Below, in pieces: positions 2,645 to 46,073 of a DNA stretch of 48,988 nt (the stretch's first letter is position 1; each line of letters starts with the position of its first letter). Location: the sequence record OK272487.1; one strand, 5' to 3'. The translations under genes and the position numbers were made by a program. This DNA is from Escherichia phage JLBYU09. The notes under the pieces are model-generated. The model was not told the DNA's origin, ran no database searches, and saw only the letters and a list, made by a program, of their open reading frames with translations.

Positions 2645-2682
2645 TTGCTTTCTCCTGATGGGTATCTCGTTTCGATGTGTGC

Positions 2683-2727
2683 ATTATGCCGAATCCAGTC
2701 AGGCACGTTTTAACAAAAAGTGCTATT
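2683..2727 (-). promoter_or_regulatory. conserved-box promoter-like element (box, 19-nt spacer, CATAAT)
   Basis: Minus-strand AATAGCACTTTTTGTTAAAA at 2727-2708; CATAAT at 2688-2683. Confidence 0.5.
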
Positions 2728-3316
2728 TGCTTACTGGTCATTATTCCATCTATTCCATTAATCAGGAATAACAGGAATAACTCATTCGCGATCACCTGGA
2801 TTGGGAGACTTTGAGTTTGGTCAATTTTAATCAAGTGATTAACTTTTTGTGTGGAGGGGATAGAGAAACGCTGCCCTCTTGCATCCTTTCCGACAATCCT
2901 GGCGCGCGCATCTGTTATTTCTGTTCCCCATGTTATCTCAAATAAGCCTCCGCACTTTTAGATAACAGAATCGGCGTTCATCAACAAAAAGAACAAAATA
3001 AAANTNANATATNNACNNANNANATCAATAAGTTAGTTATATATGTATTTATATTTGTTATTTACTGTTGAGCTTGTTCTATGGGTATATGGTGGAGTGG
3101 TATTGTTTGTGGTGATATGTATGTGTGATTGTATATTTTTTAATCAATGGTGATATGTGGTGATTTTTGTATGTATATATATAGGTATGGAGCAATCCTC
3201 CGTCAACCAAGTCAACAAGGTCATTTTTAAAAGAAAAACCAATGACTTAACTGAAGCATTTTGTTATCTTTAAACGCGCCACATGCCAAAAATTGTTATT
3301 AAAACACAAAAATACA

Positions 3317-3345
3317 TTGACACGTATGAAAGGCAAGGCAATAAT
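3317..3345 (+). promoter_or_regulatory. sigma70-like promoter (TTGACA, 17 nt, AATAAT)
   Basis: TTGACA at 3317-3322, AATAAT at 3340-3345; at the right end of AT-rich region A, before the first rightward gene. Confidence 0.5.
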
Positions 3346-3381
3346 GCATCCAGTTTAAACGCAACAAAAGGAGTAGACGCC

Positions 3382-3903
3382 ATGAGCGAAGAAAATATTA
3401 GCACCATGTCGCGTAGTGAGTTCTGCGATATGCTTCGCAGCCTGGGCGCGGCAATTGGTAGCGGTGAGCGTAATGATGTATTCATGCCAGCACTTTTTTT
3501 GTGCGCTAACGTGGAGAACGGCGAAGCAATTACGGCATCGTACATGCGCCAAGTGGTCAACCGTGTGCCAGAAGTAAAGCAAAAAGGCGTGATCAGCATT
3601 AAGCGAAAGGTGACTGATGAGGGTGATGGCTTTGTGTTTACGCTCACTGAAGCCAAAAGCAAGCCTCGCGTTCTGACTGGTGAAGAAATCGACGAGATCG
3701 CAGAAAAGCGCGCAGAGAAGGCGGTAAGCAAAATTCTTAATCACCTGGTAAACGTAATGCCAAATATCACAGACCTGGAAGGCGACAAACTTGCTGGGGC
3801 GTGTGAGGCTATCGGGCGCTACCAGGATATGATTCGTAAACTCGCTGGAGGAAAAGAGGATGAATANNNNATNNNNNNNNNTNTTNAAACTCGAAAACGA
3901 TAA
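3382..3903 (+). CDS. hypothetical protein (C-terminus crosses N-run)
   Basis: Track ORF 3283..3903; start moved to ATG 3382 after AAAGGAG RBS; N-run 3867-3893. Confidence 0.5.
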   Translation: MSEENISTMSRSEFCDMLRSLGAAIGSGERNDVFMPALFLCANVENGEAITASYMRQVVNRVPEVKQKGVISIKRKVTDEGDGFVFTLTEAKSKPRVLTGEEIDEIAEKRAEKAVSKILNHLVNVMPNITDLEGDKLAGACEAIGRYQDMIRKLAGGKEDEXXXXXXXXTRKR

Positions 3904-5925: not shown

Positions 5926-6135
5926 TCTGGTTACTTTTAATCTTTGTCACAAGTTACAATTCCGCCGCTATTGAATCGCAAGAGTTCCACGGCGAATCAA
6001 GATGCCAGGAAGCACGANNACNNGNNNNNCNNNANNTCNACGGNCGAATCAAGATGCCAGGAAGCACGAAAACAAGTTGTTCTCCACATGTCAGATAGTG
6101 GGAAAGATGTAACAGCGCTATGCGTTCGTAAATAG
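5922..6135 (+). CDS. small membrane protein (MIWLL family), interrupted by N-run and tandem duplicate
   Basis: ATG 5922 overlaps the upstream stop, GGAGGA RBS; N-terminus MIWLLLIFVTSYNS; frame ambiguous across Ns 6018-6043. Confidence 0.3.
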
Positions 6136-8491: not shown

Positions 8492-8749
8492 ATGGCTAAA
8501 AGCAATCGTAAAATGTTGATTAACGCATTCGAAAAGGCAGCGCTTGAGCGTGGCTGGAATGACTCATTTCACACAGCAAACTGTATCCGCCGTTACGGAT
8601 TCAAGAATTGCCGCTCCTGGGCGCGTCAAATGGCTTCATGGTATGATCTTGATGCGCATTACCTTGATATGGATTGCGCCCTTGTTGAAATGATTGAGCA
8701 GGCCGCATTAGAGGATNGANCANNNNCGCANTNNNNNNTNGACCATTAA
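8492..8749 (+). CDS. hypothetical protein (3-prime end crosses N-run)
   Basis: AAAGGAGGAAGC RBS; Ns 8717-8738; true stop may be 8800-8802. Confidence 0.5.
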   Translation: MAKSNRKMLINAFEKAALERGWNDSFHTANCIRRYGFKNCRSWARQMASWYDLDAHYLDMDCALVEMIEQAALEDXXXXXXXXDH

Positions 8750-9096: not shown

Positions 9097-9328
9097 TCAC
9101 GATTAACCTGTCAGAGCAGCANGCGNGNATNATGNNNGNNNNCAGGCAACGGTTAAAATCCCTGATACGGTAGCGCGTGAAGTTTTTAACCAGCTTGAAC
9201 ACGCATTTGTTCCTGTTGGCACTGATCAGGCAGAAACAGCGGCTTGGTTCGGAGAGAACGGATACAGAGATCAGCAAGTCGAAAACTGGAAGCGCAAAAA
9301 CGAGACTGCGGAGGAGGCCGGATTATGA
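9093..9328 (+). CDS. hypothetical protein (interrupted by N-run)
   Basis: ATG 9093 overlaps the upstream stop; Ns 9121-9143 shift the apparent frame; ends TGA 9326-9328, overlapping the next ATG. Confidence 0.3.
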
Positions 9329-31562: not shown

Positions 31563-31790
31563 TCACAGACTGCAATCAGCGTTTTTAAAGTTATCAATAC
31601 TTACCCACTGAAAATTAAACGGATAGCCAGCCTTAACAAGAGTGCGGTCGCCAACTCGTTTCACTCCGAAAATAGCAACTGAATACTGCATTCCGCTATT
31701 TTCATAAATAGCCGTGCATTCACGTTTAGGCATATTTGCACATCCAGTCAGTGCAACGGCTGCAATCAAAACGGCGATTAACTTTTTCAT
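31563..31790 (-). CDS. cor: Cor-like superinfection-exclusion lipoprotein
   Basis: 75 aa; signal peptide plus lipobox LTGC; convergent with the receptor-binding gene, as recalled for T1 and phi80 cor; AAGGAGA RBS. Confidence 0.55.
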   Translation of the reverse strand: MKKLIAVLIAAVALTGCANMPKRECTAIYENSGMQYSVAIFGVKRVGDRTLVKAGYPFNFQWVSIDNFKNADCSL

Positions 31791-31820: not shown

Positions 31821-31864
31821 ACTATACACGATCTTGCGGTGGGCGTTTAGCAAAAAGTGCTATT
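31821..31864 (-). promoter_or_regulatory. conserved-box promoter-like element (box variant, 19-nt spacer, TATAGT)
   Basis: Minus-strand AATAGCACTTTTTGCTAAA at 31864-31846; TATAGT at 31826-31821; upstream of the Cor-like gene. Confidence 0.5.
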
Positions 31865-32231
31865 CTTGTTCTTTTTGTTATCCGGTGTTCTCAAATCTGC
31901 GGAGTCTTAAATTTAGCTCAAAAAGTGAACAACAATAGAGCGCAATACATACAGATAAATATATACATACATATAAATCAATAAGTTAGTAGTATATATA
32001 TTCATGTTTGTTCTTTATTGTTATCTATGTTTTGTGTGATTTTGTGCGTCTGGTGATTTTTCTGTGATTATGCATGTGTCAGTGGTTATGTGTGTCTATA
32101 TATCTATATCCGGCGCAAATGAGGGAACAAGAGAACAAAAAGACAACAAAGGTATTTATCAATCACTTACATGTGAATTTTGTTATCCAATTCTCCTAGA
32201 ACGTTGTTAGAACAGAAAAAACAAAATAACT

Positions 32232-32259
32232 GTTGACTAAACGCATTAAATAGCTAAAA
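32232..32259 (+). promoter_or_regulatory. sigma70-like promoter (TTGACT, 16 nt, TAAAAT)
   Basis: At the right end of AT-rich region B, upstream of the exonuclease/Erf/SSB operon. Confidence 0.5.
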
Positions 32260-32289
32260 TGCAGGCATACCAACCAACGAGGGCAAATC

Positions 32290-45866: not shown

Positions 45867-46073
45867 TCAAATCTTGAAAGCTGTTTCCGCTATAATCATT
45901 CTCGACAAGAATGTAAGNACNTNTCTTCNTNNNATCNNNNANNNNNNNNTNTNNTCNTAACGATTTATTTCAAACGTGCTACCATCTTCTCTTGTCGCAG
46001 TTCCTTTGTCGTTGAAAACATCAAAAGTTACATTGATGATTTTTGTTTCTTTCTTTGTTACTTTGATAGCCAT
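45867..46073 (-). CDS. hypothetical protein (interrupted by N-run)
   Basis: Track ORF 45867..46088; start moved to ATG 46073 after GAGGA RBS; Ns 45918-45958. Confidence 0.4.
   Translation of the reverse strand: MAIKVTKKETKIINVTFDVFNDKGTATREDGSTFEINRXXXXXXXXXXXRXXLTFLSRMIIAETAFKI

Follow-up and report, generated by a model that had tools for sequence, protein, structure and literature searches.

The genome of Escherichia phage JLBYU09 (sequence record OK272487.1; the whole stretch of 48,988 nucleotides (nt) that was analyzed is referred to as the window) carries an AT-rich region of roughly 590 bp at positions 2728–3316 (region A), which a sequence-only reading of the window had proposed to be homologous to a second region at 31865–32231 (region B). 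What is such a duplicated stretch for? An early promoter-operator hub, an origin of replication with iterons and a source of small RNAs (sRNAs) had been put forward. The window belongs to a siphophage of the T1 type (Drexlerviridae, Tempevirinae, Hanrivervirus; closest record JLBYU41). In T1, regions A and B exceed every other non-coding region in size by a wide margin. T1 belongs to the classical T phages, but where its replication starts and how its early transcription is controlled are not known. By sequence comparison, A (2907–3312) and B (31857–32228) are paralogues that go back to an ancient duplication of a single cis-acting DNA module, whose parts suggest a platform for a nucleoprotein complex. 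The reading favored here, to which we assign a probability of roughly 0.45, is that the modules are paired replication origins, made of iterons, IHF sites and AT-rich DNA, whose promoter-proximal sites may also influence the two adjoining rightward promoters (PA and PB).

The alignment of A and B lies far beyond chance. Its Smith–Waterman score is 46; dinucleotide shuffles reach 12.9 ± 1.6 (z = 20), and shuffles within 40-nt blocks, which keep the local composition, reach 20.8 ± 3.3 (z = 7.6). BLASTN searches of region A against region B of related phages, and the reverse, gave E values of 1e-7 to 5e-11. A profile hidden Markov model (nhmmer) built exclusively from the region B orthologues of 24 other phages matched only two places on the plus strand of the window, region B (31857–32228, E = 2.1e-73) and region A (2907–3312, E = 5.8e-20), the latter over profile positions 7–362 of 370. 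These limits indicate a homologous unit of ~370–400 bp; the proposed homology is real, but it covers only 2907–3312 of region A and starts in region B at ~31857, leaving 2728–2906 as a segment specific to A. The ordered blocks that the sequence-only reading had listed are present and colinear (ATCAATAAGTTAGT at 3024 and 31977, GTGTGATT at 3123 and 32034, GGTGATTTTT at 3159 and 32052, TTTTGTTATC at 3259 and 32178), and a further copy of the TTTTGTTATC block lies at 31873. The AAAAAGTGCTATT shared by the left borders of A and B is part of a promoter-associated 21-nt repeat found throughout the genome rather than a similarity specific to A and B. Within region B the profile also matches the reverse strand (E = 1.4e-6), indicating an internal dyad symmetry.

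Region B orthologues were gathered through the exoVIII gene (45 loci, later 58) and region A orthologues through the DUF3987 helicase gene (51 loci, several of which end short of region A); the first gene to the right of A, used as an anchor, yielded only two loci because it is too variable. The B profile finds an A-type copy in 29 of the 51 helicase-linked loci, indicating that the duplication is older than the split of the subfamilies of the Drexlerviridae.

Both copies follow one order of parts: a left triplet of TGTT(A/C)(T/C) sites, two inverted sites, an AT core with an IHF site, a second triplet, a GT-rich stretch, a TA tract, two to three inverted AACA sites ~10 nt apart, a second IHF-type element, ATTTTGTTATC, promoter-proximal AACA sites and the −35 element of the promoter. 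In copy A (2907–3312, plus strand, with the ten N's at 3004–3023 filled from JLBYU41) the left triplet is TGTTAT/TGTTCC/TGTTAT (2913–2936, starts at 2913, 2922, and 2931), followed by inverted ATAACA/AGAACA sites (2960–2996), an AT core of 88% AT that includes (TA)5 (2997–3062) and an exact IHF consensus, AATCAATAAGTTA, within it (3023–3035, one N filled from JLBYU41). The center triplet TGTTAT/TGTTGA/TGTTCT (3056–3080, starts at 3056, 3066, and 3075) leads into a GT-rich stretch (3081–3190) with a single C in 110 nt of the plus strand and a second (TA)5 (3174–3183), and the copy is completed by CAACC/CAACA sites (3203–3217), the IHF-like AACCAATGACTTA with one mismatch (3237–3249), TTTTGTTATC (3259–3268) and TGTTAT..AAAACACAAAAA (3294–3312). 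Copy B (31857–32228, plus strand), for which conservation was followed across 45 loci, consists of the left triplet TGTTCT/TGTTAT/TGTTCT (31867–31891, starts at 31867, 31876, and 31886), inverted AACA sites (31926–31934), an AT core of 82% AT (31943–32008) with the same exact IHF consensus AATCAATAAGTTA (31976–31988), the center triplet TGTTCT/TGTTAT/TGTTTT (32009–32033, starts at 32009, 32019, and 32028), a GT-rich stretch with five C against 21 G (32028–32095), CGGCGCAAAT (32111–32120), inverted GGAACA/AGAACA/ACAACA sites (32124–32148), a second exact IHF consensus, TATCAATCACTTA (32157–32169), TTTTGTTATC (32178–32187) and AGAACA/AAAACA (32209–32223). The repeats reported earlier within this part of region A are present as described, namely the inverted repeat TGTTATCT(CAAA)/(TTTT)AGATAACA (2931–2942 and 2956–2967), the TGTTATC copies at 2931 and 3262 with a reverse complement at 2961, and the direct repeat GGTGATATGT at 3111 and 3149, with GGTGAT again at 3159. 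The GT-rich, C-poor stretch just to the right of the AT core is also conserved in other lineages, an observation for which we offer no explanation.

The sites are arranged with helical phasing. The TGTT(A/C)(T/C) sites of each triplet are spaced 9–10 nt apart, and the center triplet lies 143 nt (A) or 142 nt (B) from the left one. Across the 50 non-identical modules used for the map of layout and conservation, same-strand TGT–TGT spacings peak at 9–10 nt (z = 25 and 15, values inflated by the relatedness of the modules) and at 19–20 nt. The density of TGTT(A/C)(T/C) is 9 per 400 nt in both A and B against a genome mean of 1.0, with no other locus near this value. The repeats next to the AT core on one side are opposed in orientation to those on the other, and the core itself, with its (TA)4–5 tracts, is conserved across lineages. 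Exact matches to the IHF consensus WATCAANNNNTTR are concentrated in the two regions: three of the eight in the 49-kb window lie within the ~1 kb of A and B, or four of nine if the N-masked match is included. These predicted sites start at 2829, 3023 (one N filled), 31976, and 32157 and have the expected A/T-rich 5′ flank, and in the conservation map of the core element the invariant columns are the specified IHF positions and the variable columns are the N's of the consensus. Read in this way, the module appears to be a selectively maintained assembly site at the DNA level for a phage-encoded sequence-specific protein and, very probably, IHF.

The comparison across the family shows that the layout of the module is kept while the repeat sequence switches by lineage, jointly in A and B of one genome. 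Hanrivervirus and the TLS-like phages carry TGTT(A/C)(T/C), T1 and its relatives TGTAAC together with TGTATA or TGTCTA, Pantoea phage AAS23 TGCGGTAGAT, Enterobacter phage Ec_L1 (A)CGGAGGATT, and the uncultivated virus genome (UViG) L328, available for copy A only, TTGTCCCA. In four lineages A and B agree in repeat class. L162, a relative of T1, shows a joint change of the middle site in its two B triplets, AAS23 has an identical 22-mer (AAAATCTACCGCAAAAATAATA) in A and B, and of the 15 copies of CGGAGGAT in the Ec_L1 genome 14 are inside the two modules, five of them in tandem in B at distances of 10–11 nt. This co-variation between A and B suggests that the phages encode a DNA-binding protein that evolves together with its sites. 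Lineages with unrelated repeats retain the IHF-type element AATCA(A/G)TCACTTA, and its constancy during the turnover of the repeats is as expected for a conserved host factor acting together with a co-evolving phage binder. The four or five lineages with different repeats and the same layout constitute a natural experiment.

The module is linked to promoters at its right end. The sequence-only reading had correctly recognized PA, a near-consensus sigma-70 promoter (TTGACA-N17-AATAAT, 3317–3345, plus strand, 11 out of 12 matches) that precedes the early rightward operon and is conserved in close relatives; PB (TTGACT-N16-TAAAAT, 32233–32260, plus strand) precedes exoVIII, Erf and SSB. In 43 out of 45 distinct B sequences the spacing between a TTGAC(A/T) and the start codon (ATG) of exoVIII is fixed. 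The right end of the module is the −35 element of PA or PB, the promoter-proximal AACA sites stop at the −35, and a second IHF-type site lies ~75 nt upstream of it. A TGTTGA overlaps the −35 of PB, and a clear overlap between sites and core promoter occurs only in L328, where the repeats occupy the promoter spacer and the +1 position. Region A is flanked by leftward small early genes towards the DUF3987 helicase and the methylases and by rightward early genes on the opposite side, and region B by the leftward superinfection-exclusion gene Cor (31563–31790) and the rightward exoVIII-Erf-SSB block. The description of the pair as a region duplicated at both divergence points holds for the window, but not for AAS23 and Ec_L1, where everything is on one strand and copy B comes right after the 3′ end of the primase gene, with the primase terminator on one side and exoVIII on the other. 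In these two phages (AAS23, L478 22299–26628; Ec_L1, L479) the SSB-Erf-exoVIII block and module B are inverted relative to the window and located downstream of the regulator-primase genes. That B stays with exoVIII in spite of this rearrangement indicates that the module moves together with the exoVIII promoter and has no inherent tie to divergence points. Furthermore, the promoters adjoining the modules of Ec_L1 are of the 21-nt direct-repeat type and not TTGACA, indicating that more than one promoter class can accompany the module.

How would such a module act as an origin? A phage protein whose sequence specificity drifts along with the repeats of its lineage would oligomerize on the arrays, host IHF would bend the module DNA, and the strained AT/(TA)n core would open. 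In the window, the divergent promoters that flank each module could feed negative supercoils into the AT core. Opening of the core would allow the DUF3987 helicase and the primase to load, so that each module would serve as a replication origin, and occupied promoter-proximal sites would simultaneously modulate PA and PB. The binding of proteins, the identity of the binder, the unwinding and the origin activity are predictions drawn from the sequence. As a sequence pattern, the clustered, regularly spaced short repeats next to an AT-rich element are those of an iteron origin, and the earlier suggestion of such an origin fits the features of the module, as does that of a promoter-operator hub. 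In the T1-like family the origin is unknown, and no origin or iterons have been found (PMC11447400, PMC7718038); the literature searched, which did not include the T1 genome paper, contained nothing relevant on origin mapping or transcriptomes of T1. Two precisely bounded candidate elements per genome, together with a conserved list of parts, make both the missing origin of the family and its early control directly testable.

Several known origins share parts of this layout. The origins of staphylococcal pathogenicity islands (SaPIs), and other satellite or phage origins of this kind, have an AT-rich region with a set of short repeats on either side; the element-specific repeats co-vary with the helicase-initiator that binds them, and the origin adjoins primase and helicase genes. 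The phage module resembles these in its repeat sets around an AT core, its lineage-specific repeats and the position of B beside the primase gene in AAS23 and Ec_L1; it differs in the presence of two copies per genome, the fusion to a promoter, the IHF-type sites and the GT-rich, C-free stretch, and in that no obvious initiator specificity domain was found. The satellite phage P4 has an origin (ori) and a second cis region, crr, which share TGTTCACC repeats that are bound by the alpha primase-helicase. A and B likewise are well-separated cis regions that have their short repeats in common, the annotation of the T1 primase names a similarity to P4-type alpha/primase proteins, and TGTTMY resembles the P4 repeat, which may be a coincidence. 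In contrast to P4, primase and helicase are separate and are conserved across unrelated repeats, and A and B are full paralogues, each with an AT core and a promoter, not an origin and an enhancer. The lambda origin, pSC101, R6K gamma and oriC share with the module the opposed phased arrays, an adjacent AT-rich unwinding element with an IHF site in or beside it, and flanking transcription that could activate the element. They differ in that the module has no DnaA boxes, its repeats are of 6–12 nt and in this lineage degenerate, and it lies outside an initiator gene. The combination of iterons, AT core and IHF sites is a known kind of element, and it appears to be new as a feature of the Drexlerviridae: the A/B module was not described in the literature searched, which did not include the T1 genome paper and older T1 replication papers.

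The protein that would bind the repeats was sought among the phage gene products. Among the proteins encoded by the family are a helicase, a primase and SSB, but no recognized initiator; the primase (331 amino acids (aa), zinc ribbon) and the DUF3987 helicase (545 aa) are encoded by separate genes, and the primase is conserved apart from its last ~60 residues, which are perhaps lineage-specific. The only recognizable regulator, a Cro/YdaS-like helix-turn-helix (HTH) protein, was rejected as the binder of the module since it is too conserved to explain the turnover of the repeats. The first gene downstream of PA encodes a DUF7174 protein (3382–3903, plus strand) that is hypervariable and syntenic in several lineages, and its structural model has a winged-helix-like domain with a helical hairpin; the protein is a weak candidate for the repeat-binding protein. 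In JLBYU41 the DUF7174 coding sequence is annotated as longer (194 aa) than in the homologues (153–171 aa).

Several observations weigh against the modules being origins. The authors of the TLS study reported no iterons, although tandem repeats of the lambda type were sought (PMC11447400). No convincing hypervariable specificity domain was detected in the DUF3987 helicase, the primase, the superfamily 2 helicase or the Cro-like regulator, and lineages with completely different iterons still have conserved helicases, a conserved primase and a conserved Cro-like HTH protein. Ec_L1 lacks DUF7174, which gave weak fold matches. DnaA boxes (TTWTNCACA with at most one mismatch) are missing from A and B, compared with 102 elsewhere in the window, and GC skew tracks gene orientation and is uninformative on origins. 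Finally, the promoter-overlapping repeats of L328, together with the constant fusion of the module to a promoter, are explained equally well by a pure operator.

This last point leads to the close rival of the origin reading, which the sequence evidence does not separate from it: a purely transcriptional role, in which the module would consist of operators or enhancers for a phage regulator, with IHF bending or looping the DNA to switch the two early operons, and would have no part in replication. We consider this possible, if on the doubtful side. It would account for a module that always abuts a promoter, for the fixed distance to TTGAC(A/T) in B and likewise at PA, for the second IHF-type site at a distance upstream of the −35 that is found in IHF-dependent promoters, and for the repeats over the spacer and start site in L328 and over the −35 in B. 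Two copies in front of two operons, the early genes behind PA and the recombination genes exoVIII-Erf-SSB behind PB, resemble a regulon, and in AAS23 and Ec_L1 copy B keeps the company of exoVIII in spite of the rearrangement. Comparable arrangements are found in Mu Pe/Pc and lambda pL, where multiple sites for phage proteins and an IHF site lie upstream of early promoters; the sites of L328 that overlap the core promoter add to this likeness. The module is, however, larger than those regions in size, number of sites, AT/(TA)n core and strand-asymmetric stretch, and it belongs to a lytic phage for which no repressor was identified. A length of ~400 bp with at least 12 sites, a (TA)n core of 82–88% AT and a C-free stretch exceeds the known needs of phage operators, and most sites lie 100–380 nt upstream of the promoter. 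The promoters of the 21-nt repeat type next to the modules of Ec_L1 also argue against a purely transcriptional function, as does the failure to find a cognate regulator, the sole recognizable HTH protein being too conserved for the turnover of the repeats.

An extended form of the origin reading, in which T1-like phages would replicate from a two-site origin system, is conceivable and, as far as can be judged, unlikely. A fast-evolving phage initiator (perhaps DUF7174 or another small early protein) would have to sit on both modules, perhaps pairing them, and the same complex would time the early promoters, sit by pac and couple the initiation of transcription, replication and packaging. If this were true, the co-variation of repeat and binder would amount to a replication “immunity” barrier between co-infecting T1-like phages.

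Other architectural roles seem improbable, for example that the copies pair (“handcuffing”), that they anchor or compact the genome, or that they act as a decoy, titrating away a host or defense protein. Such roles would agree with two distant copies of identical repeat specificity in every lineage and would give a place to the conserved GT-rich, C-poor stretch, which is otherwise unexplained; they require neither the linkage to promoters nor an AT core with IHF sites, and no supporting protein was identified.

The segment specific to A bears on packaging. It covers 2728–2906, beyond the reach of the B profile, and contains TTATTCC/GGAATAA repeats in inverted orientation (2741–2780) that are common to T1 and other lineages, an exact IHF consensus, AATCAAGTGATTA (2829–2841), an interval rich in GATT/TGAT, and GGAGGGG...CCCTC (2853–2878). 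The repeats that the sequence-only reading had stressed at the left of region A (CAGGAATAA at 2763 and 2772, TATTCCAT at 2742 and 2751, and ATTCCA) are present as reported, but they belong to this segment and not to the duplicated module. Every lineage inspected has an equivalent of this segment, bounded by the module and the leftward 21-nt repeat. The GenBank records of T1, TLS, G29-2 (~2862), and haarsle (~2853) start or end within 2728–2906, the record of BEK1-23 starts at ~2958, just past the segment and inside the module, and the pac site of T1-like phages has been placed in this untranslated region (UTR) (PMC7718038). The ends of the deposited records, an indirect kind of evidence, and this placement suggest that 2728–2906 is probably the pac or first-cut region. 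It is far less likely that the module itself is a packaging signal, with A as pac and B as a secondary or cryptic pac. The pac site of phage P1 consists of hexamer arrays to either side of an IHF site and the cut, and would offer a model for this arrangement. Record ends in region A and the published position of pac are in its favor; most of these ends, however, fall into the part that B lacks, with only that of BEK1-23 inside the module, and the small terminase is conserved throughout the family while the repeats change completely. Moreover, a single submolar pac fragment is seen in T1 and in TLS (PMC11447400).

The proposal that A and B encode small regulatory RNAs found no support and is very improbable. 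It could appeal to the long non-coding stretches and to a mildly negative folding z-score of A (−2.2), but the z-scores are alike on both strands (−2.2 and −1.9 for A, −0.8 and −0.65 for B), as expected of DNA palindromes rather than RNA, and conservation takes the form of short motifs in both orientations with dyad symmetry. A search of Rfam returned nothing at the gathering threshold, with only chance matches to eukaryotic microRNAs (E ~0.8), and no internal promoter or terminator was called in A or B. The statement that region A has no convincing open reading frame (ORF) is borne out, each small ORF being broken in at least one of four relatives with 93–98% identity. All of them are broken in more distant relatives, annotators disagree on the ORFs of region A, and the small ORFs were rejected as genes. 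A chance resemblance of AT-rich, low-complexity spacers or a decaying duplication without function is refuted by the alignment (z = 20, or 7.6 with local composition kept), the profile match (E = 5.8e-20), the layout shared across subfamilies and the turnover of the repeats in step.

The left borders of both regions hold a different element. Where the sequence-only reading had placed a leftward promoter (2683–2727), no canonical sigma-70 promoter was called; the minus strand there carries a copy of a 21-nt direct repeat (AATAGCACTTTTTGTTAAAAC, 2707–2727) and a −10-like CATAAT (2683–2688) 22 nt downstream of it. The corresponding element at B (31821–31864, minus strand) consists of AATAGCACTTTTTGCTAAA (31846–31864) and a −10-like TATAGT and precedes the Cor gene. 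A 21-nt intergenic direct repeat of T1-like phages has been described, with the consensus aaATAGCACnnnTTGnTAAAA in TLS and a function that is unknown (PMC11447400), and both borders agree with it in sequence, in orientation with transcription and in their position ~76 nt before the start codon. In the window, AATAGCACTTTTTG(T/C)TAAAAC occurs in 11–12 copies, all oriented with transcription, with 13-nt cores at 1838, 2715, 6131, 8801, 21034, 31852, 39327, 41845, 42886, 46139, and 48306. A constant gap of 22 nt separates TTGnTA from the −10-like hexamer, often with short inverted repeats in or around it. This gap is too long for a −35/−10 pair of sigma-70; the repeats look like an activator-dependent promoter class. 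Although A and B each hold one copy at the left border, the repeat, which is conserved family-wide and has 11–12 copies in the window, is distinct from the far larger module, a different element that occurs only twice. What has been called “the UTR” is split by these results into three: a probable pac segment confined to A, the genome-wide 21-nt repeats and the module that occurs twice, a division that is useful for the engineering and rebooting of T1-like phages and for the annotation of Drexlerviridae genomes. In T1 (L123, ~95–115 of the record) and its relatives, a second, inward copy of the 21-nt repeat (TTTTTAGCAAAAAGTGCTATCG) lies at the left edge of module A; it mirrors the left border of B, which suggests an insertion of the pac segment between this copy and the leftward genes.

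The gene of the Cro/YdaS-like HTH protein (38841–39314, minus strand) adjoins that of the primase, and in a comparison of the window, AAS23 and T1 the protein is 56–58% identical, with the conservation extending to the recognition helix and to a basic stretch, NGNNGTRRGKDKKPRKR, at the N-terminus. Conservation of this kind, recognition helix included, fits the family-wide 21-nt repeat better than the lineage-specific repeats and suggests that the HTH protein may be the factor for the 21-nt repeats.

BLAST searches with A and B against E. coli genomes and plasmids gave no match and hence no evidence for a satellite or prophage that carries the module. The 126 N's of the window form eight clusters (1481–1569, 3004–3023, 3867–3886, 6018–6044, 8717–8740, 9122–9142, 37122–37199, and 45918–45957) in which they are interspersed base by base. 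Over 2645–3381 the window is identical to JLBYU41 except at the N's, which suggests that these represent masking or ambiguity and not biology. Records MG0656xx (“Campylobacter phage A1xx”), ~20 of them labeled as Campylobacter jejuni phages, contain both regions with 88–96% identity to the window and are probably coliphage contaminants or carry wrong host labels. A scan of IMG/VR with ATCAATAAGTTAGT, TCATTATTCCATCWAT and TTGTCCCA-N-TTGTCCCA returned, among the matches listed, mostly chance hits or unrelated contigs. In the IMG/VR loci L345–L464, clusters of TTGTCCC/GGGACAA, often 9–12 nt apart, were observed on many unrelated viral contigs and may represent a widespread type of iteron or operator.

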